A DNA stretch of 63,044 bases, filler included, from Candidatus Fermentibacterota bacterium (GCA_016928395.1; 10 parts of 10 records of this genome joined end to end with filler, not necessarily neighbours in it), one strand, 5' to 3'; shown: positions 579 to 16,072, counted from the whole stretch's first letter. A program made the numbers and translations. Notes: generated by a model not told the origin, from the letters alone.

Positions 579-2231
579 TCAGCCACCGCCGGTAGGAGTG
601 GCGGCAGCCAAGGCATCCTTGTAGTTCCAAGGCATCCATGCCGAAGGGTTGGCGTGGACCTCTGCGTAGTGCCGCTGGAGTGCCGTGAGATAGTGGAAGG
701 GGTTCACACCGTTGAGATAACAGGTGTGAATGAGGGTCATGTGGATGTCGCCGACGAGGGCACCGTTGGGAGTCAGATAGAAGAGCGAATTCCTGCGGTG
801 CCGTATCACCATTTTCAGGGCGCGCTCGACGACGTTGTTATCGATTGGCGCCCCGGCTTTATGCAAGAAAAGCGTAAGCGCTTTCCAGTGTCTGAGCATG
901 TATGCTATCGCAGCGCCCAAACTCGAGTTCTTCTCCACTCTCTTCTCTTCGAACTGCACCTCGAGCCATACCTGGAGGCGATCCATGAGGATTCCGCTGC
1001 TATCCTGGTGAAATGCCAGGCGCTCTTCAGGCGACAAGTCCATGTGCTTTGCCACGGCGTCGTTGACATAGACGTCCCGAAAGATCTCGATCACGAAGCT
1101 GCAATCAACAGGGAAGGACTCCACCAGATCGACAAACTGCCTTCTGGCATGGGCACAACAGTTGGCCAGAATGACTGCGAAGTCCTTGGGCGTGTTGCAC
1201 GACGAGGCGTCACACATGTGAATGGGAGCAGCCAAACCCTCCGCGCGTCGCCGCAGCACATCGGCCAGATTCTCTCCGGCGTGCTGCCGGCCGGTGAAGA
1301 AGAGCGCGACCTTGTGTCCCTGGACCATCGAGACAATGCCAGTTGTGAATACCCCCGTTCGGGAAGGAGCGCCTTTGGTATTGCGATCAGCTCTGGCGCT
1401 CTCCAGCATGAGAGCCATGACTTTCATAGGGGTGTCGTCGTTGTGGACAACGTCACCCTGGGCTGCTTGTCGTATGAACTCCTCAAACGCAGACGAGTAC
1501 CGAGCGGCCGCACGATCCACGAGCTCCCACTGGGTTGCCGCGGGTACGGGGACTCCGAGGCTGGCTTGTAGTTTTTCGAGTCGATTGAACGGGAATCCGT
1601 TCCCGTACTTCAGGACTCCGACTACCGTTGCCGCCGTGGCGTCATACTTGTCAGGCCCTGCATCCGCCGGCGTGTCGGCGGTGAATACAGTACCGCACAA
1701 GCCGCAGCGCAGCTTCTCGAGCTCATAGACGGTCGCCTTCAAGGGCGGCTGGCCAACCACTCGAACTACGGTCCCTGGTTGCTGAGACTGATACACAGTA
1801 CCCTGTGCGCATTCCGGGCATGAATTCCCCGCTTTGAGGTTCTCAAGGGTAACCCGGACTCTAGCAGCGCCGGTGTACGCAGCGGCCCCGTTACGGCCAT
1901 GGCCCTTGCGTTTCGTCTTCGGTACCGTCGGCCTCTCGGTTTGCACCTGAGTGTCGTCGACAGATGTGGGCTCCGCGGGGGCGGGAGTCTCCGTTGTCTT
2001 GAGCACGTTCTTCGTCTTCTCGGTAGAGGGGCCGAAGATCATCTTCAGAAGGCGCTGGATCGAGTGGCTTTTCTCCTGGTAGGCATGAGCCAACTGGGCA
2101 TGCGTGTCCAGAAAAAGGCGAAGGATCTCATAGTCACCCTCGACGAGTGATCGGTTTTCCAGCCGAACACACAGGGCGGCAAACTCCTCAGGACTGAGGT
2201 CTTTGTTTCGTAGAACCGCGATGCTTGTCAA
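579..2231 (-). CDS. tnpC: IS66 family DDE transposase TnpC
   Basis: FGPSTEK, Zn-finger CPEC...CGLC, HNDDTP, CCAHARRQF, PIDNNVVERALK. Likely TTG start at 2231 with GGAGG RBS, overlapping the upstream stop codon. Confidence 0.92.
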   Translation of the reverse strand: MTSIAVLRNKDLSPEEFAALCVRLENRSLVEGDYEILRLFLDTHAQLAHAYQEKSHSIQRLLKMIFGPSTEKTKNVLKTTETPAPAEPTSVDDTQVQTERPTVPKTKRKGHGRNGAAAYTGAARVRVTLENLKAGNSCPECAQGTVYQSQQPGTVVRVVGQPPLKATVYELEKLRCGLCGTVFTADTPADAGPDKYDATAATVVGVLKYGNGFPFNRLEKLQASLGVPVPAATQWELVDRAAARYSSAFEEFIRQAAQGDVVHNDDTPMKVMALMLESARADRNTKGAPSRTGVFTTGIVSMVQGHKVALFFTGRQHAGENLADVLRRRAEGLAAPIHMCDASSCNTPKDFAVILANCCAHARRQFVDLVESFPVDCSFVIEIFRDVYVNDAVAKHMDLSPEERLAFHQDSSGILMDRLQVWLEVQFEEKRVEKNSSLGAAIAYMLRHWKALTLFLHKAGAPIDNNVVERALKMVIRHRRNSLFYLTPNGALVGDIHMTLIHTCYLNGVNPFHYLTALQRHYAEVHANPSAWMPWNYKDALAAATPTGGG

Positions 2232-3112
2232 TTCACGCCTCCCGAGAGCACCTTCCGGAACCGGCGAGTGAGGGGGTACCCAAGGATGAGCTTGATCGGC
2301 ACTCGCTTCTCGTAGGTCGGTGCGTTGTTTCCCCGGCCCGACGTCTCGCCCAGGACGAGCCAGTTGGCGGCGCGGTAGCACGTCCCCCTATACCGCGCCG
2401 GATCCGTGAAGGTCTCAAGGTAATACACCGGATGCCCGTACACCTGCTCCCAGTCCCGGGGCAACATGCTGGCCATGCACCCAAGGATGTGGGAAGCCAG
2501 ATAGCGAACGGAGACCCATGGCAATATGAGAAACCGCGTATTATAGGCGATGAACCGAATGTTCCTCCGCCGGGCTTCCGGGGACCAGCCGATGAACCGA
2601 TCGCGAATCCCCAAATGGCGTGGTGCCGAGGACCACGCCATGCAGGCAAGGGGCCGATCCTGCGAGTATATGATGTATTTCAGGTGCTCTCCCACGGGTT
2701 GCACATAACGAAGGTAGTGGAAGCACTCGATGAGGCTGCCGAAGAGGCCCTCGTCAGAGGTCCGTCGTACCTGACGAAAGTCGAGTGGTTTCACCGAAGC
2801 CAGATTCCCCTCGATGGGGGTCTGGTCGATGAGGACGTGCGGAGAAGGCCGCTTGCGGTGAGCTAGCGGGTTAGGGTTGCGTCGCCGTATTGGAGGCAGC
2901 TCGATGAATCCTTTGCGATGGAGGGCGAGCATGTACCCTCGGCAGACCATGTCACGAAGGACCCCGTTGGGCTGCCGCCAGTCCCATGCCTCGCAGAGGA
3001 GTTTCGAGAGGGCCCGCCGGCTGGCGGTGGGGCTTCGGGCTATGAGTCCCTTGATGAACTCGACGTCTTCACGCGTGACCGCTTTGCCGCGATATCTCAG
3101 GAGCTCTTCCAT
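2228..3112 (-). CDS. DUF4338 (Druantia DruA-like) domain protein
   Basis: SRRALSKLLCEAWDW, RDRFIGWS, NTRFLILPWV, LASHIL, LETFTDPARYRGTCYRAANW are characteristic DUF4338 motifs. Confidence 0.85.
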   Translation of the reverse strand: MEELLRYRGKAVTREDVEFIKGLIARSPTASRRALSKLLCEAWDWRQPNGVLRDMVCRGYMLALHRKGFIELPPIRRRNPNPLAHRKRPSPHVLIDQTPIEGNLASVKPLDFRQVRRTSDEGLFGSLIECFHYLRYVQPVGEHLKYIIYSQDRPLACMAWSSAPRHLGIRDRFIGWSPEARRRNIRFIAYNTRFLILPWVSVRYLASHILGCMASMLPRDWEQVYGHPVYYLETFTDPARYRGTCYRAANWLVLGETSGRGNNAPTYEKRVPIKLILGYPLTRRFRKVLSGGVN

Positions 3113-3821: not shown

Positions 3822-3921
3822 NNNNNNNNNNNNNNNNNNNNNNNNNNNNNNNNNNNNNNNNNNNNTTAATTAATTAANNNNNNNNNNNNNNNNNNNNNNN
3901 NNNNNNNNNNNNNNNNNNNNN
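3822..3921. other. Artificial contig linker (first of nine)
   Basis: N-run/TTAATTAATTAA/N-run with stops in all six frames; identical 100-nt copies start at 9452, 12788, 16553, 22210, 38262, 47269, 49972 and 56227. Confidence 0.99.
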
Positions 3922-5443: not shown

Positions 5444-5722
5444 GTGCCAAGCGTCGGAATCAGGGAGCTCAAGATCAATCTCAGTCGATACGTCGAATCT
5501 GTATCGCAAGGCGATGAAGTATTGATCACAAAGCACGGAAGGGTTGTGGCACGACTCGTCTCGGTTCAGAAGAGGAGCCCCAGGCTGAAGGATGAGCTGG
5601 CCACGCTCGCGGCAGAGGGTCTCATCCGGCTCCCGGCGGAGAGGCCCGGCAAACGTCAGCGTCGACTTCTGAGGATCATGGGTCTTCCCATGTCTGAAAT
5701 GGTGATAGAGGATCGGCGGTGA
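5444..5722 (+). CDS. Phd/YefM family antitoxin
   Basis: VGIRELKINLSRYVESVSQGDEVLITKHGRVVARLV; GGAGG RBS; 4-nt overlap with the toxin gene. Confidence 0.9.
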   Translation: MPSVGIRELKINLSRYVESVSQGDEVLITKHGRVVARLVSVQKRSPRLKDELATLAAEGLIRLPAERPGKRQRRLLRIMGLPMSEMVIEDRR

Positions 5723-6153
5723 TCCTGTACTGCGATACCAGTGCTCTCGTAAAGCTGTACTTCCATGAGAGTCATTCGGAAGAGGTCATTGCACAACGGG
5801 GAGAGGCCGAAGCCCTGGCCATCTCGTCAGTCGGTTTTGCTGAGTTCTTCGCGGCGCTGAATCGGAAGCAGAGGGAAGGCGGTCTGGAGGCGAGAGTCCA
5901 CCAACTCGCGGCGGCGCGCTTCAGGGAGGAATGGCTGAGCCTCGTACGGGTGGAGATCACCGAGGAGTTAAACGAGACGATCATGCGTCTGCTGGCCGCT
6001 TATCCTTTGAGAGGGTTCGACGCGATCCATCTCGCGTCCGCGCTCATCCTACGCGAACGGCTCAAGACGGCGGAGATTCGGTTCGCATCCTTTGACGAGC
6101 GACAACGGCGCGCCGCGGAGCAAGAATCCTTGACCGTGGTTCCGCGCCTCTGA
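5719..6153 (+). CDS. vapC: VapC family PIN-domain toxin
   Basis: YCDTSALVKLY, LRGFDAIHLASA, FASFDER. Confidence 0.9.
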   Translation: MILYCDTSALVKLYFHESHSEEVIAQRGEAEALAISSVGFAEFFAALNRKQREGGLEARVHQLAAARFREEWLSLVRVEITEELNETIMRLLAAYPLRGFDAIHLASALILRERLKTAEIRFASFDERQRRAAEQESLTVVPRL

Positions 6154-6710: not shown

Positions 6711-6956
6711 ATGAAGTATGAAAAGCCTATCGTTCGAGATCTGACCGGCCGTTCCGCGGCAGGCGGACCGCCTGTAATTCTGGGGTGCGGATATGGAAAT
6801 CTGGTTGACAACAACTGCAATCCTGGACAGACACTTAGCCAACCGGGATTGTGTCTGGCGGGCACAGAAGGCCCGGAGGATTACCAGGCTGGTAACTGCG
6901 CTCCTGGGACCCTCGCTTCTCCTGATTGCCTTACTGGTTCCGCTGCAGCCCCATAA
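6711..6956 (+). CDS. Putative RiPP precursor with five CxxG motifs (orphan paralog of 11039-11293)
   Basis: GGAGGAGG RBS; leader KYEKPIVRDLTG; CGYG, CNPG, CLAG, CAPG, CLTG. Confidence 0.8.
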   Translation: MKYEKPIVRDLTGRSAAGGPPVILGCGYGNLVDNNCNPGQTLSQPGLCLAGTEGPEDYQAGNCAPGTLASPDCLTGSAAAP

Positions 6957-6961
6957 TCGTC

Positions 6962-7133
6962 GTAGGTTGGGTTAGCCTGCGTAACCCAACAGCCCTCTGA
7001 CCTGCAAATAGCTCAACAGCCCGCAGGGCGAGTCAGCGTACTCGCCCTGCGGGCTTGTCATTCTGGGTGGCGGCTACAGCAGTTGCTGAGTGAGAAGTAC
7101 CCGTAGGTTGGGTTAGGGCAGCGTAACCCAACA
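6962..7133 (+). repeat. Two GTAG-type REP elements (6962-6991, 7103-7133)
   Basis: GTAGGTTGGGTTAG-x-GCGTAACCCAACA palindromes; a reverse copy lies at 9603-9632 and a partial copy near 9968. Confidence 0.85.
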
Positions 7134-7447: not shown

Positions 7448-9418
7448 TCACTTCAGAAGAACCAACGGCAGAACCTCCTCAGCCCCACCCGAGAAAGCCC
7501 GCACGAAGTAGACGCCCGAGGGCGCCGGCGCGCCGAGGGCGCCCCGCCCATCCCACACGGCCTCATGGGCCCCGGGAAGCACTGGGCCGTGGATCAATCC
7601 GGCAACCCTTTCACCCGCCAGGTTGTACACCGCCATGTCTGCTGGTCCCGGGCCGACTGTGCGATAGGCGATAGACACCCGATTCGTGAAGGGGTTCGGG
7701 AAGGCCCTCTGTAGCATGAGAACCCCCACGAGGGGCGCAGGCTCGTTGACATCGATGCTCAGCGGTAGATCAAGTCGGCCCCAGCCATAGATATTATCCG
7801 GACCGGTCTGCCCCATGTCGATGGCATGCGCCTGCAGGCAGTCCCATACTTGAGCCAGGGTCCACTCCGGGAACGCCCCGATCACCAACGTTGCCGCCCC
7901 CGCGACATGGGGACTGGCAACCGAGGTCCCGGAGAAGCCAGGGCCTGACGAAAAGGTGGCAACCCTGTCTGGCCCGGCGATCTCCGGCTTGGTTCTTCCA
8001 TCGTAGGTCGGCCCCTGGGAGCTGGAGGCCTCCTGGGGGCCGGTGGTCCAGTTCTCCTTGGCGATAGCGCCGACGGCGAAGGCGCCGACCGCGTCGGCGG
8101 GTTGCAGAAGGCTGCCGGCGAAGGTTCGATACTGCAACGAGTGAAACGCACTCACGATGGTCAGCGTATTCGGCTGGGTCGTGTGATATTCCTTCACGGC
8201 TACCGCGTATTCGCCGCCGGAGGGGATTGCGAAGCCGACTTCCTCAGTCGGCGGTTGCGAGCCTGTCTGGCGGGTACAGGACGAGGCAACCATTTCCCAC
8301 ACGGCGTCGTTCTTGCGATAAAGGTTCAAATCGTAATCCTCAGCCGTGAGAGGCCAGGCGCTCCAACTCAGGTAGATCCACACGGTATGGCCAGCGCTCA
8401 AGGTTCCCAACGAGTTGAACCCAATGCTCGGGTTCGCCGCGAAGTCATGCAGGCTGTCCCCATCGGCGTCGACGAAGGAGCCCCGGTAGTGATTGTAGGC
8501 ATGGTTGCCGATGGCATTTGCCCAGAAGATGCCGTGGTCCGCCGCGTCATCGGCGATCTGGCACACGGTGCCGGTGCCGTCGTGCCCGCCGGTATTCGCA
8601 TAGCCGACGGAATGGTTGATGACCCGGATCCCATTGGCGATGCAGTAGTCCTTGGCATTGGCCAGATCAACCTCGCTGTAGGTGTTGATCAGGGTCAGGT
8701 CAGCATCAGGCGCCATGTCGTGGACAATCTCGGCGACTGCGGTCCCATGCCGGCTCAGAGACTCCATGCCGTAGCCGGTGAAATCCACGGTGGTTACATC
8801 TTCAGGAATCTCTCCGGCCGCAATAGCCTGGCTCAGGTTCTGGAAGCCGACATCGACAACGGCAACCTTAGCGCCGGCCCCTGTAAACCCATGGGCGTGC
8901 CACTGGTCCGCTCCAGTGAGCGCAACCCCTTCGCTAGTGACTAGCGGGATTGGACGCGCCGGCGCTCGCACGTATCGCACACCCCGAAGGTCGGCCACCG
9001 CACGTAACTGTGGAATGGTAACGGAGCACACATGCAGATTCCCATTCTGACCGAGGATTTGGGCGCCGCGGGATGCGAGGTGACCCTGGGGCAAAGGCTT
9101 GTAACCTTCAACAATGACCCGAACACGGTTCCCCTCGGCATCAATGCCCCATCCTTGTGCGGCCAAAAGCGCCGCCTGTTCACCATGAAGTTCGTACGAC
9201 ATTACGAGACGGGCCAGCACATCCTGCATGGCCCCGAATTCCACGCCGGCCGGCGCGGCGGCCTCCCCATCGGGGACGGTGCGCACGGTCAAGGCCATGG
9301 CCGTCGCAGCCGCCAGTGTCATGAAAGAGTACATGATTACAGCGGCAATCCGGTTGAATCGGAGTAATGGGCTCATAGGTATCATCTCCCTCCTAAAGGG
9401 AACGGTGGCGGCACTCAT
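7448..9418 (-). CDS. Secreted S8 (subtilisin-like) serine peptidase with C-terminal FlgD-Ig/secretion-tail domain
   Basis: Catalytic triad VAVVDVGF, HGTAVA, GTSVASPHVAG; signal peptide; tail FPNPF...VYNLAGE...WDGR...SGVYFVR. Start codon uncertain. Confidence 0.9.
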   Translation of the reverse strand: MSAATVPFRREMIPMSPLLRFNRIAAVIMYSFMTLAAATAMALTVRTVPDGEAAAPAGVEFGAMQDVLARLVMSYELHGEQAALLAAQGWGIDAEGNRVRVIVEGYKPLPQGHLASRGAQILGQNGNLHVCSVTIPQLRAVADLRGVRYVRAPARPIPLVTSEGVALTGADQWHAHGFTGAGAKVAVVDVGFQNLSQAIAAGEIPEDVTTVDFTGYGMESLSRHGTAVAEIVHDMAPDADLTLINTYSEVDLANAKDYCIANGIRVINHSVGYANTGGHDGTGTVCQIADDAADHGIFWANAIGNHAYNHYRGSFVDADGDSLHDFAANPSIGFNSLGTLSAGHTVWIYLSWSAWPLTAEDYDLNLYRKNDAVWEMVASSCTRQTGSQPPTEEVGFAIPSGGEYAVAVKEYHTTQPNTLTIVSAFHSLQYRTFAGSLLQPADAVGAFAVGAIAKENWTTGPQEASSSQGPTYDGRTKPEIAGPDRVATFSSGPGFSGTSVASPHVAGAATLVIGAFPEWTLAQVWDCLQAHAIDMGQTGPDNIYGWGRLDLPLSIDVNEPAPLVGVLMLQRAFPNPFTNRVSIAYRTVGPGPADMAVYNLAGERVAGLIHGPVLPGAHEAVWDGRGALGAPAPSGVYFVRAFSGGAEEVLPLVLLK

Positions 9419-9602
9419 TGCCTAGTCGGCACAGCCACCAAGGAACACCGCNNNNNNNNNNNNNNNNNNNNNNNNNNNNNNNNNNNNNNNNNNNNTTAAT
9501 TAATTAANNNNNNNNNNNNNNNNNNNNNNNNNNNNNNNNNNNNNNNNNNNNAATGCCGTTTGGGATGCGATCCGGCGCGGCCAAGCCATAAGGGAGACTG
9601 TG

Positions 9603-9632
9603 TGTTGGGTTACGCACGCTAACCCAACCTAC
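9603..9632 (-). repeat. GTAG-type REP element
   Basis: Reverse complement of the 6962/7103 family. Confidence 0.8.
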
Positions 9633-9710
9633 GGGGACCATATGCCACAAACAAGTGGGGGCCCCGGGCCCGCCCGGACGATACGTGGTGTAACGTCCAC
9701 CCCTCCCTCC

Positions 9711-9792
9711 GTCATTGTCCGACTCGTTCGGGCAATCCAGGCCCGAGCATCTGAACCTATGCCCGTATCACTCGGTCAAGCCGGGTGATGAC
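9711..9792. repeat. Palindromic intergenic repeat (GTCATTGTCCGACTCGTTCGGGCAATCC...CGGTCAAGCCGGGTGATGAC)
   Basis: GTCAT...ATGAC terminal inverted arms with internal hairpins. Confidence 0.5.
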
Positions 9793-10044
9793 ATTCGTGC
9801 TCTTCACCACACCCGCTCGTTCTGTGCCCTGGGTGGGAACGCCGCTCCACTCCTTGGCGGTGAGGCCGAACGCCGACTCCGTCCCCTGGCGCTGGATGCT
9901 GGTGCCGCGGCGGGAAGTTACAGCTTAGCTCGGGGTGGGCGCCAATGCGCTCGCGGATGGGGGAGCTTGTTGGGTTACGCTCGTGAACCCGATCGACGTG
10001 AACTCCAGTGGATGAAACAGGCGTCCAGCGGAGGCGGTACAGCC

Positions 10045-11022
10045 CTATGCCACGACAGAACGGATTTGGTCCCAGTGGATGCTGTGGGGCATGAATGTCA
10101 TTCGACGGAGCGGGACCCCATAGCAAAGATCAAGAAAGAGCCCAAATACGGCGGATTTGAGTGCTCTTGGAAGAAGCATCGTGGTGGAAGCATTGTCATG
10201 CCAAACAAGCTGAAGAACATCGGCCGGGCTTACTGGTGCGAGAGAAAACGAACTACCCTTCTCAAGAAGAAACATGGCACCAATTCTCCCGGCCATCGGA
10301 GACCGTACTCCAGCTCCCAAAGGCGTGGAATACGCAACGAAGCCGCGGTCCTCTCTCTTGACCAGTATGTGGTCGTCGTCAAGAACCGATAGACCGTCGG
10401 CAAGACGAGCGACAGTTGATTTGCCCCCGCCGTTTGGACCCAAAAACAATACGGAGACTTCACCCAGCAGGACGGCGCAGCTGTGAACAAAGAACGCTGA
10501 CCAAAGAGGCAGAAACAACGAGAAGATCTGCCGAAGGTTCGATGCCACGCGAGCGACGGAGGGAAGCCAGCCAGCAATGGGAGGATCTAAATCCGCATCA
10601 TCATAGATCGTGAGGTCGGCCACTCGCGTCTCATAATCCCACACCAACTTGATCCTGCATTCCGGCCAGGCAGCCTGATGCTCAAGTCGAGTCGGTCCGA
10701 GCAAAACGGGATGAAGACCTTCCGAATCCCTCGAGAGCGCTGGAGTGTGGCTCTCTATGCCAAGACCCCCGGGAGCAACACCGTGTACATCGTCCCAAAT
10801 GGAGCGATGAGGGCGGGCAGAAGTGGTTCTGACCCTCCTAATTCGATTCAGAACATCTGGGGGGCGGGGCTCGACCTCAAAGGGGGCGAACTTCGGGCCA
10901 TCTATGCGAGGCAGTGGGGTGTTAGCCTCGGTTCGAAATGCGATTCCGGCAATCCCATGATCAAAGGCCATGAAGCCAGCGCTGCTACGAAAATGCATCG
11001 CGGCGGATGGGCAGCGTTGCAT
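10045..11022 (-). CDS. ScmC/HprK-related P-loop protein of the radical SAM RiPP cassette
   Basis: FFVHSCAV...LFLGPNGGGKST...VLDDD...YSTP; lies directly downstream of the precursor gene. Start uncertain. Confidence 0.75.
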   Translation of the reverse strand: MQRCPSAAMHFRSSAGFMAFDHGIAGIAFRTEANTPLPRIDGPKFAPFEVEPRPPDVLNRIRRVRTTSARPHRSIWDDVHGVAPGGLGIESHTPALSRDSEGLHPVLLGPTRLEHQAAWPECRIKLVWDYETRVADLTIYDDADLDPPIAGWLPSVARVASNLRQIFSLFLPLWSAFFVHSCAVLLGEVSVLFLGPNGGGKSTVARLADGLSVLDDDHILVKREDRGFVAYSTPLGAGVRSPMAGRIGAMFLLEKGSSFSLAPVSPADVLQLVWHDNASTTMLLPRALKSAVFGLFLDLCYGVPLRRMTFMPHSIHWDQIRSVVA

Positions 11023-11038
11023 GTGTTTCGAAGACGAG

Positions 11039-11293
11039 CTAGCCGCCGGCTTGCGTTCCCACGGTGCAACCGATCAGAGCATCTGAGCCGGTCTGGCACT
11101 TCGGCATCTCGGGGGCAGTGCCAACGGGCGAGCAGCCTCTTCCGCCTTCTACCTGCAATCCTGTTTGGCATTCGGTCCACGGATATTCGCCATCTTGACA
11201 CCATCCAAGAGCCATTTGCCCCCTGACTCCCAGTCCACTCAAATCCCTCGCCGCCGGGGCTTCGTACTTTGGTCTATGGCGGCTTCGTGTCAT
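11039..11293 (-). CDS. Putative RiPP precursor with five Cys (CxxG repeats)
   Basis: GGAGG RBS; leader KYEAPAARDLSG; CQDG, CQTG, CSPVG, CQTG, CTVG; 22 nt downstream of the rSAM gene. Confidence 0.85.
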   Translation of the reverse strand: MTRSRHRPKYEAPAARDLSGLGVRGQMALGWCQDGEYPWTECQTGLQVEGGRGCSPVGTAPEMPKCQTGSDALIGCTVGTQAGG

Positions 11294-11315
11294 GACGTCC
11301 TCCCCTCAGGACGGC

Positions 11316-12455
11316 TCAGGCGGAACGGGTCCGCGAGGCCGGAAAAATGCCCGCTTTACTAGCGATATCACAGAAGAAGTAAGGCGCATTCAGGCGGCCC
11401 GCAACATGAAAGTTGTTGGCGACGCATTCGCCGCGGCACATATCGCGGTGCAAACAGTCGCCGCAGATGCCTTCCAGCTTGAGGGGAATCAAGTCCCGCA
11501 AGAGTTTCAGGCCGGGGCTGTCACACCAGACATCCCGGAGGTCGTCATAGGCGATGTGGCCGTAGACCAGCTCGGGAACCGTGACGCCGATGCCGCAGAG
11601 CGCCAGCTTGCCATCGGCCAACATGCCCAGAATGGTCAAGACGCCGCAGGTGCCGAGATTGCCTCTGGACAGCTCGCGAATCGTGCGGAACGCAAAGGGG
11701 ATGTCCAAGAAGATCGAGATCTTGGCCTTGGGACGGAGTTCGCGGTTCAGATGGCCATTGAGCTCGATGATATCGGAGATCTGAAGCCCGTGGTCTCTAT
11801 GAAACCCTTCGCCGCGGCCCACGAGCTGGACATGGTTAAACTTGACTGACCCGGCGCCGATGGACTCTGCGAAGGCGACCAGATCGTCGACCTGGCCGAT
11901 ATTGCCCTTGTGCAGGGTACAGATGACCTGAGGCCGGTAGCCGACCTCGACGAGGTTCTTGATGCCGTTGACCGCTCGATCAAAGCACCCTTCGACGCCG
12001 CGCATGTACTCGTGCATCTCTGCTGTTGCGCCATCGAGGCTGACCGAGATGAAGCGCATCTTCTCTTTGCTCTTGAGGAACTTCGCCATGTCTCCATCGA
12101 CGAAGGTGCCGTTGGTCTCGATGGTGATGGAGAGGCCGGCGTCGTTGATGATCTCGACCAGCTCCCGGAACTGGGGATGCAGCATGGGCTCGCCGCCCGT
12201 GAGTTTGAAGGCCGAAAGGCCAAGGGACCGGCCCTCATCGATGGCCTTGCGCACGTAGTCGAGCTTGATGTGATCGACATCGCGGCCTTCCGGATCGAAC
12301 GACGGCGTGATCCAGCAGTGGCGGCAGGCTAAGTTGCAGCCGCCCGAGGCATACAGGTATATCGAGCCAAGGGGTGGGACGCCCTCGGGGAGATCGATGG
12401 TGGCTTGAGTTGGGGCCTCAGCAACAGTTTGAGGCTTCTCGTCCAGACACGACAT
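11316..12455 (-). CDS. Radical SAM/SPASM maturase, SynChlorMet ScmF-like
   Basis: YLYASGGCNLACRHCWI (CxxxCxxC), TGGEP, ETNGT, SLDG; SPASM cysteines CGV...LCGIG...CGDCLHRDMCRGEC...C. Likely ATG at 12455. Confidence 0.88.
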   Translation of the reverse strand: MSCLDEKPQTVAEAPTQATIDLPEGVPPLGSIYLYASGGCNLACRHCWITPSFDPEGRDVDHIKLDYVRKAIDEGRSLGLSAFKLTGGEPMLHPQFRELVEIINDAGLSITIETNGTFVDGDMAKFLKSKEKMRFISVSLDGATAEMHEYMRGVEGCFDRAVNGIKNLVEVGYRPQVICTLHKGNIGQVDDLVAFAESIGAGSVKFNHVQLVGRGEGFHRDHGLQISDIIELNGHLNRELRPKAKISIFLDIPFAFRTIRELSRGNLGTCGVLTILGMLADGKLALCGIGVTVPELVYGHIAYDDLRDVWCDSPGLKLLRDLIPLKLEGICGDCLHRDMCRGECVANNFHVAGRLNAPYFFCDIASKAGIFPASRTRSA

Positions 12456-12787
12456 GGTAGCCTTCCGTTTCGGCAAGGAATCGCCGGTAGCAGTCTTCAG
12501 GGTTTGCTCTATTGAAATCACCGGTAAGCTGGTGGGCCATGCCTGGGCAGCTCCCGTTGCAGTATTCGTTCCACTCGCAGTCTTCGCAGCCGGGCACATC
12601 GCGCATCGGGATAGACCGGCGTTCGCGAAGCGCGATCAAAGTCGGATGGTTGTGCCAGATCTCCTCGACGGAATCCGTCAGGATGTTCCCGAGCACCAAA
12701 CCGGGGAGCATGTTGCAGGGCACGATGGTGCCGTCGTGGAGGATGTCGAGGCGGTTGAAGATGCACCCGCAGGCAGTCAAGTAGCCC
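12418..12787 (-). CDS. SPASM domain of a second radical SAM enzyme, ScmE-like (5' truncated)
   Basis: GYLTACGCIF...DGTIVPCNML...GNI...CEDCEWNEYCNGSCPG...DCYRRFL. Confidence 0.85.
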
Positions 12788-12887
12788 NNNNNNNNNNNNN
12801 NNNNNNNNNNNNNNNNNNNNNNNNNNNNNNNTTAATTAATTAANNNNNNNNNNNNNNNNNNNNNNNNNNNNNNNNNNNNNNNNNNNN

Positions 12888-14033: not shown

Positions 14034-14345
14034 TCAGTTCTGCACCTGTTGGGTACAACGATCACCCTGTGACCAGTAGGTGAGGGGATCGATCTTGCAT
14101 TGGCAGAAGCAGTAGGCGCCGCCAGGAGGGAATGTGCAGTAGCAATTGCACGTGCCCGCAAGGCACCCGCCCGGCGTAGCGCAGGACGCGGAACATGGGA
14201 TGAATGCACTTGCACTGCAGCTACAGCCAGGAGGTGGGTTGGGAGGATCATTCATGTCTGCCTGCGCACCATCCATCAACCCGACGTTGACGAGGGTCAC
14301 CACTGCAAGTACAGCCATGAGTCTCACGAAGATGTGGGTTCGCAT
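14034..14345 (-). CDS. Secreted Cys-rich small protein (12 Cys in ~74-aa mature part)
   Basis: AAGGAG RBS; Sec signal ending AQA; CSC, CNCYC and CFCQC motifs. Confidence 0.8.
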   Translation of the reverse strand: MRTHIFVRLMAVLAVVTLVNVGLMDGAQADMNDPPNPPPGCSCSASAFIPCSASCATPGGCLAGTCNCYCTFPPGGAYCFCQCKIDPLTYWSQGDRCTQQVQN

Positions 14346-14414: not shown

Positions 14415-15518
14415 CTACCTCCTTTCCATCAGGGGTTCGCGCACTTGGGCTAGTAGAGGTTGGCCATCGTCGCGATAGAGCAGGAGATTCAGCCGGCCGG
14501 CCGAGTCGAACTCGGCGTCGCGCACGTCCTTGACTCGCACGAACTCGTGATTGTCAGATTCCTCCAATTCGAGAAAGACCGGCTGCGACAGCGACCGGCT
14601 TCGGGAATCGAATTGAACAAAGACGTCACCACACAGAAGGCCACAACCCGAACCTTGATCCGCGGCAAGGGGACCGAACGTGCGCAGAAAGGTCATATCG
14701 TTCCAGGGAGCCAACATCTTGCCCACATCCTGCCCGGCAAGCTGAAGGTCGTAATCCGCGACAAGCGCTCCGTTCGCATCGTATTCCTGGAGTGCTGCCC
14801 ACGGCTTCCTCTTGCTCAGGCAGGGGAGAAGGATGAAGAACCCTCCGTGCCTGCTCCGCACCATCGAGAACTCAAGGTCCTGGATGATGGGGGACGGAAC
14901 AAGACCCCTGGTATGAACCCTCAGCGCCGCTCCCTCGGAGCGGATTCCCCAGGCCCCACCTTGCTGTTCTGCCCGGTAGATGCGCGGCGAGTATCCCTCG
15001 AGCTCGGTTCCAACCCACACTCCGCCGGCGTGCCACACACCAATGTCACACATGGTCCCCATTGTGTTCATACCGTTGTACGCGGCACGAGGAACACCGC
15101 TGGGATCCAGGAACTGCAACTTCTGATCCTCAAGCGCCCATAGGCTGCCCCCATCCTCAACTGCGAGCCTTCGCAAATGCCTGAACTCCCCTGGACCCTC
15201 GCCAATGCGCCCAATGCCGCGTACCGGGGTGCCGTTCGGACTGTACACCACGATTCGACATGCACCGCGATCCGCAACGTAGATGCTGTCGCCTGGGCCC
15301 ACCGCAATGTCGATAGGCGCTATGAGCTGTGACAGAAATGTATCTTCCCCGGGAGCCGGGTCAGCGGCCTCTGATGTCACCCAGGCTGCCTGCACCGCGA
15401 CGGCACGCGATGGGTCAACAACCAGGACACCTCGTGATACGGCGGCGTGGGGCCCGCGGCACGTGAGCAGCAGGCCCGCCAATCCCGCTATGATCACCGA
15501 AGGTTGAGATCGAGTCAT
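14415..15518 (-). CDS. 6-bladed beta-propeller (NHL-like) exported protein
   Basis: PIDIAVGPGDSIYVADRG...IGRIGEGPGEF; GGAGG RBS; ATGA overlap with the upstream gene. Confidence 0.8.
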   Translation of the reverse strand: MTRSQPSVIIAGLAGLLLTCRGPHAAVSRGVLVVDPSRAVAVQAAWVTSEAADPAPGEDTFLSQLIAPIDIAVGPGDSIYVADRGACRIVVYSPNGTPVRGIGRIGEGPGEFRHLRRLAVEDGGSLWALEDQKLQFLDPSGVPRAAYNGMNTMGTMCDIGVWHAGGVWVGTELEGYSPRIYRAEQQGGAWGIRSEGAALRVHTRGLVPSPIIQDLEFSMVRSRHGGFFILLPCLSKRKPWAALQEYDANGALVADYDLQLAGQDVGKMLAPWNDMTFLRTFGPLAADQGSGCGLLCGDVFVQFDSRSRSLSQPVFLELEESDNHEFVRVKDVRDAEFDSAGRLNLLLYRDDGQPLLAQVREPLMERR

Positions 15519-16072
15519 ATGTTCCTCCAGCCACACCATTGGGCCAAGACCAGTTGCACCTCTCGCAGGGTAGTTCCACCGAGGTCAAGACGTGTCCTCC
15601 CATTGGGCTCGACGAGCCGCACTGCCCGGCCAGGTGAGAGGCTGTCCACGAAAGGAAGGAGATCTCGCGCCCGATTGCAGCCCGTGACCGGGAACGAGCT
15701 TCCCGCATACTGCGCGAACCTCCGTAGGGACGCTGTGTCCCCGCCAACGACCAGGAGTACAACGGAAACCCCAGATCCTGACTCTCCATCCCGGAGGACC
15801 CTCACCAGTTCCAACGCCTCCCGGCCCTTGTTGAGATCGACTTCCACGATCAGCACGTCAGCGGTGTCGCAGGGAATGGTCACAGGCCGACCGAGGATGT
15901 CATGCCCGCTCCAGGTGACACGATCTCCATACGATACCATCGGGGTGGTTTCCGCCTTCGCCGATACGGCGTGCCGTCTTGCGACGATCTGGCGGCCGAT
16001 GATCGCGCCGTTGACCATCAGGAAGGCTGCCGCCGTGATCCAGATGACCCGCGTACTGACCGTTCTGCTCAT
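15515..16072 (-). CDS. Membrane-anchored thioredoxin-like-fold protein lacking CxxC (tentative)
   Basis: N-terminal TM segment; GDRVTWSGHDILGRPVTI resembles a TlpA/AhpC N-terminus; ATGA overlaps on both sides. Confidence 0.5.
   Translation of the reverse strand: MSRTVSTRVIWITAAAFLMVNGAIIGRQIVARRHAVSAKAETTPMVSYGDRVTWSGHDILGRPVTIPCDTADVLIVEVDLNKGREALELVRVLRDGESGSGVSVVLLVVGGDTASLRRFAQYAGSSFPVTGCNRARDLLPFVDSLSPGRAVRLVEPNGRTRLDLGGTTLREVQLVLAQWCGWRNI

Follow-up and report, generated by a model that had tools for sequence, protein, structure and literature searches.

The DNA analysed here, hereafter called the window, is a stretch of 63,044 nucleotides (nt) from a Candidatus Fermentibacterota bacterium (GCA_016928395.1), in which ten contigs are joined by N44-TTAATTAATTAA-N44 spacers. 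Our analysis indicates that one of these contigs, at positions 9552-12787, carries the middle part of a SynChlorMet-type cluster for a ribosomally synthesised and post-translationally modified peptide (RiPP), with genes for two radical S-adenosylmethionine (SAM)/SPASM enzymes, an 84-amino-acid (aa) peptide with five Cys and a P-loop protein, and that it would work according to the maturation steps proposed below. We give this reading a probability of roughly 0.6. That the locus is a RiPP cassette and that the 84-aa peptide is its substrate is, taken separately, very probable. The evidence comes from the profile scores of the two enzymes, from the gene order of related loci and from the conservation of the peptide among these loci.

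Gene layout and assignment to the SynChlorMet cassette

The spacers lie at 3822-3921, 9452-9551 and 12788-12887 and at six further places, and in such a concatenation of ten contigs the neighbourhood of genes across a spacer is therefore meaningless. The cassette contig has 3,236 bases and four genes, all on the minus strand, and since an N spacer begins at 12788 the cassette is genuinely cut at the contig end. An initial annotation of this DNA had described an operon of ScmE-like, ScmF-like, 84-aa peptide and P-loop genes interrupted at that point, and both the genes and the spacer bear this out. The features discussed in this work are the following.

12418-12787, minus strand: 3' fragment of the scmE-like gene, encoding the last 122 aa; stop codon at 12418-12420; matches TIGR04250 and PF13186
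11316-12461, minus strand: scmF-like gene, 381 aa, complete; matches TIGR04251 and PF04055
11298-11307, minus strand: Shine-Dalgarno-like GAGGGGAGGA, read from the sequence
11039-11293, minus strand: precursor peptide gene, 84 aa; stop codon at 11039-11041
11219-11293, minus strand: predicted leader, residues 1-25, from the conserved YxxP motif and a register like that of linear polyphosphorylated peptides (LPP)
11042-11218, minus strand: predicted core, residues 26-84, with Gln as its first residue and five Cys, each with a downstream Gly
10045-11022, minus strand: P-loop protein gene, 325 aa, from orthologue alignment and fold
9603-9629, minus strand: 27-nt palindromic element, roughly 415 nt beyond the end of the P-loop gene
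6711-6956, plus strand: orphan precursor gene, 81 aa, on a separate contig (3922-9451)

The genes are tightly packed. The scmF-like and scmE-like genes share an overlap of 44 nt, GAGGGGAGGA is located 9 nt past the scmF-like stop and 4 nt ahead of the precursor ATG, and the P-loop gene starts 16 bases beyond the peptide stop. The 490 bases downstream of the P-loop gene, which make up the rest of the contig, hold no peptidase or exporter gene, and no Rfam family matches this contig at E <= 1.

The SynChlorMet cassette was defined by computer analysis alone and is represented in NCBIfam/TIGRFAMs by five models, ScmA (TIGR04252), ScmC (TIGR04249), ScmD (TIGR04248), ScmE (TIGR04250) and ScmF (TIGR04251), with curated cut-offs of 35, 125, 100, 400 and 400 bits, respectively. 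It is a name of the databases: a literature search for SynChlorMet or TIGR04248-04252, whose coverage left out supplements and most subscription journals, returned no paper, and further searches within the same coverage found nothing on the product or its chemistry.

Comparison of the two enzymes with these models, a check suggested with the initial annotation, gave ScmE and ScmF as their best families. The ScmF-like protein matches TIGR04251 with 384.2 bits (E 7e-115, model positions 2-352 of 353), narrowly missing the cut-off of 400, and Radical_SAM (PF04055) with 85.8 bits. It displays the CxxxCxxC motif as CNLACRHC and the full SPASM Cys pattern, and it has no fused RiPP recognition element (RRE). 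The ATG at 12461 is taken as the start, since alignments with homologues of 42-60% identity begin at residue 2-3 of its product, and a longer scmF open reading frame (ORF) of 427 aa is unnecessary. Over model positions 248-353 of 358, the ScmE-like fragment matches TIGR04250 with 120.3 bits (E 8.4e-35); it also matches the Pfam SPASM domain PF13186 with 42.1 bits and TIGR04085 with 47.1 bits, and it is 80.6% identical to the ScmE of a related locus, L003. The N-terminal two thirds of this enzyme are gone at the contig end, so that its match covers just the last 106 model positions; the full-length orthologue of locus L002 scores 392.2 bits against the cut-off of 400. The Cys patterns still visible in the fragment are GxxxxC, CxxCxxxxxCxxxC and a final C. 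Together, the proteins of the window contain CxxxCxxC and the C-terminal SPASM Cys pattern that are looked for in radical SAM/SPASM enzymes. For both proteins the second-best family is GeoRSP (TIGR04302-04304), with 129.3 bits for the ScmF-like protein and 49.7 bits for the ScmE-like fragment, far below the Scm models. GeoRSP, like Scm, pairs a PqqD-family chaperone with SPASM proteins, and to our knowledge the system is itself uncharacterised.

A scan for ScmF with one genome per species retrieved 79 loci, 54 of them close (L001-L054, 42-60% identity) and 25 distant, the latter with the radical SAM similarity only. The complete locus L002 has the order ScmD, ScmE, ScmF, precursor, P-loop protein, second precursor, second P-loop protein, S26 peptidase and ATP-binding cassette (ABC) exporter. 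Its PqqD-like ScmD scores 63.4 bits against a cut-off of 100, its ScmE 392.2 against 400 and its ScmF 364.0 against 400; its P-loop protein has weak matches to HprK-related kinase A and to ScmC, the protease is of the archaeal signal-peptidase-like type (S26) and the exporter is MsbA-like. Across the 54 close loci, many of which are truncated, a ScmD-like gene was detected by tblastn in 49, a peptidase-like one in 31 and an ABC-like one in 27. In these relatives the ScmD-like gene is found just upstream of scmE, and the peptidase and exporter genes are found downstream of the P-loop gene. The suggestion that an RRE and a transporter had been lost upstream, at the contig end, is therefore correct for the RRE, which is upstream in 49 of the 54 relatives, and mistaken for the transporter. 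When the ScmD, peptidase, ABC and true ScmC proteins of the relatives were compared with the whole window by tblastn, the stretches already known to encode ScmE and ScmF were the only ones matched.

Scores for ScmF are 341-396 bits among the relatives, and 410.5 (L081) and 527.7 bits (L080) in two true members of the cassette. L080 has the same gene order, with a peptide of five CxxG and a YxxP leader directly after scmF, and L081 has a peptide with a WxxP leader directly after scmF. The window follows this operon order, with the ScmE fragment, ScmF, the peptide and the P-loop protein, to which the relatives add ScmD upstream. Since gene order and peptide position are those of the true cassettes, we conclude that the window belongs to a divergent SynChlorMet clade and not to a different system.

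The initial annotation had described the cassette as one defined with no precursor identified. This was wrong, since NCBIfam holds the ScmA model TIGR04252, named SCM_precur_ScmA. This model has 49 positions, against precursors of 75-102 aa in the window clade. It matches neither the window peptide nor that of the true cassette L080, and it reaches E <= 1 for only two of 32 clade peptides (best 21.1 bits). None of five ScmF-positive genomes has a TIGR04252 match above the cut-off, and matches at E <= 1 occur also in nine of 14 control genomes. Both the cluster type and a precursor model are thus already catalogued, and a clade below the cut-offs is a divergent member of it, so that to present the locus as a candidate for an undescribed system was an overstatement. 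The window copy is truncated and is a poor starting point compared with the complete loci L002 and L008.

The precursor peptide family

The leader of the 84-aa peptide has a basic N-terminus followed by Y10-x-x-P13, D17-L18-S19-G20 and V23-x-G25. Of its five Cys, C32, C42, C66 and C76 stand in CxxG motifs and C54 in a CxxxG motif; YxxP, DL and the four-plus-one arrangement are exactly as first annotated. The window has 228 ORFs of 60-120 aa, and only two of them contain at least three CxxG, namely this peptide and a second member of the family, and four or more CxxG were reached in 306 of 100,000 shuffles of the window peptide. It is the conservation in related loci that places the peptide far beyond chance.

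A motif scan of the 79 loci identified 35 peptides that combine the leader with at least three Cys-x2-3-Gly, distributed over 32 of the 54 close loci and none of the 25 distant ones. With a looser pattern, six of 15 further close loci that were examined were added, bringing the loci with [Y/W/F]xxP plus CxxG peptides to 38 of 54, and several of the close loci that have no peptide break off immediately behind scmF. The peptide gene is mostly located directly 3' of scmF. The proposal that CxxG ORFs should be found beside scmE/scmF homologues of other genomes is borne out by these counts (38 of 54 close against 0 of 25 distant loci). By the titles of their records, the loci come from Anaerolineae, Aminicenantes, Acidobacteriota, Eisenbacteria, Fermentibacteria, Aegiribacteria, Verrucomicrobiota, Clostridia and Methanomicrobia.

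In an alignment of 32 sequences the residues Y10, P13, C32, G35, C42, G45, C66, G69 and C76 are invariant, and conservation is 90% or more at S19, G25, G30, C54, G58 and G79; the window peptide retains every residue that is invariant in its family. All 166 Cys across the 32 precursors are followed by Gly, at +3 in 135 cases and at +4 in 31. The leader is equally regular. Gly is found 16 residues from the leader Tyr in 31 of the 32 precursors, the residue two before this Gly, which is position -3 of the predicted cut, is V, A, L, I or T in all 32, and the residue after it is Gln in 22.

The peptide also follows the enzymes across genomes. Searching four whole genomes of relatives with the precursor profile gave six matches, and all six are cassette loci. 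Among 301 sampled genomes of one class, eight are peptide-positive and all eight are among the 13 that are ScmF-positive at E <= 1e-60 (Fisher p 8.5e-13); the peptide and scmF are on one contig and within 4 kb in six of the eight, and on separate contigs in the other two. Against 1.84 billion cluster representatives the profile has 379 matches at E <= 0.001, of which 137 reach E <= 1e-10. The matched representatives are almost without exception 80-100 aa long, and the ten best matches, which were inspected, are unnamed or called 'hypothetical protein'. These comparisons indicate that the 84-aa ORF is a genuine and conserved precursor. With its constant leader register and its strict CxxG spacing, the family provides clear substrates and testable predictions.

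Some loci carry more than one copy or an altered one. Two tandem pairs of precursor and P-loop genes are present in L002 (9201-12605), and two precursor genes stand back to back in L028 (9113-9718). In L012 a precursor-like ORF (8567-8758) has an intact leader, two Cys only and an altered tail, and is probably the result of a frameshift or of mis-assembly.

Proposed maturation and its alternatives

We propose that ScmD, a separate PqqD-like chaperone whose gene is lost here, would bind the YxxP of the leader and would present the core to the ScmE-like and ScmF-like enzymes, which would act on the five conserved Cys. The products may be small thioether rings, each from a Cys sulfur to the Gly three or four residues on. 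Since Gly offers an alpha carbon only, such Cys-to-Gly links would be of the sactionine type. The P-loop protein would phosphorylate a Ser or Thr of the peptide, and the signal-peptidase-like protease would cut after V/A-x-G, 16 residues from the Tyr, with export by the MsbA-like ABC exporter to follow. Judged from the residue patterns, Cys thioethers of any kind fall a little short of an even chance, and Cys-to-Gly sactionines specifically, which are suggested by analogy, are doubtful.

Part of this proposal is modelled on the closest system with experimental data, the pathway of Paenibacillus alginolyticus for LPP, encoded by lppA-K-B-S-D-N (Popov et al., Nat Commun 2026, PMC13381572). In that pathway, which is not a radical SAM pathway, the YxxP leader is bound by an RRE, an HprK-like kinase phosphorylates the core at Ser3, a SipW-like peptidase acts in an RRE-dependent manner and cleaves behind residue 16 as counted from the Tyr, at a site that has F at -3 and T at -1, and the exporter is MsbA-like (PMC13381572). 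The leaders described there share their register with those of the Scm-like clade, with a small residue at -1, 16 residues from the Tyr, and a hydrophobic one at -3. For a site of the signal-peptidase type in this register, cleavage is predicted at G25/Q26, with a core of 59 residues, and we see the odds of this particular site, which is assigned by analogy, as even. The core LPP gene set comprises an SpI-like peptidase, a stand-alone RRE, a kinase resembling HprK, a nucleoside triphosphate (NTP) transferase and an exporter resembling MsbA. The window has the kinase-like gene only, and L002 has all but the NTP transferase, plus two radical SAM genes. Since L002 shares most of the LPP genes and adds radical SAM enzymes, the cluster would work partly like LPP clusters and is not one of them. 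LPP clusters have the NTP transferase, their cores are not Cys repeats, and the main text of the paper mentions no radical SAM enzymes in them (PMC13381572).

For the ring-forming step the closest precedents are SPASM enzymes. In the CrpC/CrpA system of Methanococcus voltae, a SPASM enzyme makes thioethers within Cys-first motifs of four to five residues, e.g. CAVD (PMC13692751). The ranthipeptide and sactipeptide maturases CrpC, PapB and StsB are likewise SPASM radical SAM enzymes that act on repeated Cys motifs; they have a fused RRE, act alone, use CxxD/Q-type motifs and form ranthionine links, whereas the Scm-like clade has Gly as the conserved partner and two paired enzymes.

The RiPP cassette could be the same and its radical SAM enzymes nevertheless make no thioethers, catalysing instead epimerisation, C-methylation, carbon-carbon or other cross-links, or Cys conversion, and perhaps differing from each other in their jobs. 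This would agree with the low identity of ScmE and ScmF to each other (only about 26-28%), with their different next-best families, and with PqqE, a carbon-carbon cross-linker, as the closest solved chain to ScmF (6c8v; a weak match, E 4.1e-13). After GeoRSP, the window ScmF is closest to the heme b synthase AhbD and a mycofactocin maturase, and it scores 88.4 bits with StsB. The next-best families for the ScmE of L002 point to peptide cross-linkers, WgkB with 133.5 bits and StsB with 115.2 bits, and PapB scores 57.8-69.6 bits with ScmE and ScmF of L002. However, these scores outside the Scm families are low and close together, and therefore they do not discriminate between chemistries. In addition, the invariant features of the core are Cys and a Gly at +3 or +4, which is what would be expected for small rings with a Cys donor, as CrpC demonstrates (PMC13692751). 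We regard a cassette that makes no thioethers as unlikely.

The second enzymatic step, phosphorylation, depends on the nature of the P-loop protein. Among 26 orthologues aligned over their full length, H180, G200, K201, D216, D217, P234, L253, F259 and W274 are invariant, and the window protein retains all of them. The label 'ScmC/HprK-like' given in the initial annotation agrees with the orthologues and with the fold; the window protein on its own has no match to ScmC (TIGR04249, cut-off 125 bits) even at E <= 10. HprK_rel_A (HprK-related kinase A) is matched by ten of the 26 orthologues, with a best E of 4.2e-5, and not by the window protein, and ScmC is matched weakly by eight of the 26, with a best E of 1e-7. 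The orthologue profile, compared with solved structures, aligns with the nucleotide-binding and active-site stretch of ATP-dependent phosphoenolpyruvate carboxykinase (PEPCK; E 0.0028). An AlphaFold model built from the alignment has a predicted local distance difference test score (pLDDT) of 82.3 and a predicted template modelling score (pTM) of 0.81, with residues 69-108 poorly modelled, and Foldseek aligned this model with PEPCK at E 1.4e-6 and with HprK/P (1knx and 1kkl) at about 3e-4. According to this model, the P-loop protein belongs to the HPr-kinase/PEPCK fold class and is a distant relative of ScmC. Its invariant His, GGK[ST] and DD are presumably the residues for phosphoryl transfer in this fold. 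Kinase activity is predicted with about as much to be said for it as against it.

The recorded protein for the P-loop gene (P0001) has 192 aa, 59% of the ORF of 325 aa; the long form is favoured because the alignment of 26 orthologues supports it. A word-based search with the P-loop protein returned its own record and one PF27840 protein only, and the distant relative P0002 carries PF27840. Pfam gave no family for the P-loop proteins, including the true ScmC of L080, in a copy that apparently lacks PF27840 or does not reach it.

The P-loop protein might instead be an ATP-dependent scaffold or chaperone of the maturation complex and no peptide kinase. In its favour, the predicted core has no invariant Ser or Thr, the similarity to HprK-related kinases is weak, and the top fold matches are PEP carboxykinases and not protein kinases. 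Yet the invariant His, GGK[ST] and DD align with the active-site stretch of PEPCK, and the HprK-like enzymes of the LPP and paeninodin pathways are demonstrated kinases of their peptides (PMC13381572). A scaffold is possible, and we judge it less likely than not by a clear measure.

It could also be argued that the window copy is a remnant from which the peptidase, the exporter and perhaps further genes have disappeared, and that no product is made any longer. A peptidase follows the P-loop gene in 31 of 54 relatives and is absent here both from the 490 bases after that gene and from the other contigs of the window, and the poorly modelled P-loop residues 69-108 could be read in the same way. 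However, the four frames are open, the cluster-binding Cys of ScmF and the invariant residues of the P-loop protein and of the peptide are kept, another precursor gene in the window is intact and preceded by a strong ribosome-binding site, and the assembly is fragmentary, so that missing genes may sit on other contigs. A decayed locus is thus quite improbable. That the 84-aa ORF arose by chance, or encodes a small Cys-rich protein that binds metal and is unrelated to the enzymes, which would then act on something else, is hardly credible: the peptide has no Pfam or NCBIfam family and a word-based single-sequence search of the protein collection found no match for it, but its position, leader and Cys/Gly pattern are conserved across phyla, its leader is of the RRE-binding YxxP type and it strictly co-occurs with ScmF.

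Against the preferred reading, a working SynChlorMet-type RiPP cluster, several points have to be set. All Scm models are below their curated cut-offs or unmatched in the window clade. The cassette contig does not encode ScmD, the peptidase, the exporter or the first two thirds of ScmE, and these were not found on the other nine contigs. The families next to Scm for the ScmF-like protein are, by profile score, a heme synthase and a mycofactocin maturase and not thioether synthases. Both the Cys thioether chemistry and the division of work between two enzymes are proposals drawn from sequence patterns, and the conserved Gly may serve only for a turn or for access and not as an acceptor. A Ser or Thr directly follows the final CxxG in just 22 of the 32 precursors, so that there is no invariant phospho-acceptor, and the window P-loop protein alone has only weak generic matches to the P-loop of ABC ATPases. 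Finally, the likeness to LPP is one of shared architecture, motifs and leader register only.

A more far-reaching version of the proposal would make the products an undescribed RiPP class, with a core of about 59 residues, five very small Cys-to-Gly (i+3/i+4) alpha-thioether rings made by the two SPASM enzymes, phosphorylation by the enzyme of HPr-kinase fold, release by a signal-peptidase-like leader protease and an N-terminal Gln able to cyclise. Such a class would combine sactipeptide chemistry with an LPP chassis in many uncultured anaerobic phyla, and we consider it improbable as a whole.

Orphan precursor, palindrome and genes on other contigs

The second precursor gene of the window (6711-6956) encodes a YxxP leader and five CxxG, with the same register of 16 residues from Tyr to Gly as in the cassette precursors, and it is preceded by the strong ribosome-binding site GGGGAGGAGGG. 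It is the only other match to the precursor profile in the six-frame translated window (35.6 bits, E 6.6e-10). Its contig (3922-9451) has no Scm enzyme genes, and the neighbours there are non-Scm genes.

An identical palindrome of 27 nt, with one variable central base, occurs twice in the window, at 6965-6991 (plus strand) and at 9603-9629 (minus strand), and nowhere else in it; it was found in 0 of 100 shuffles. The copy at 6965-6991 begins 9 nt past the stop of the orphan precursor, and both copies are on the coding strand. The element could be a repetitive extragenic palindromic (REP)-like repeat or a terminator stem.

Other genes were noted around the orphan precursor and elsewhere in the window. 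A gene for a 656-aa S8 subtilase (7448-9418, minus strand) is convergent on the orphan precursor, and the C-terminal part of its product has an FlgD Ig-like stretch below the Pfam threshold. Two overlapping small genes at 5444-5722 and 5719-6153 (plus strand) are, by eye, a candidate pair of antitoxin and PIN-domain toxin. An IS66-family transposase is encoded at 579-2381 (minus strand; DDE_Tnp_IS66, 142.9 bits). On another contig, a Cys-rich ORF of 103 aa whose N-terminus is signal-like and which has no Pfam family (14034-14345, minus strand) adjoins the gene of an NHL-repeat protein (14415-15539, minus strand).

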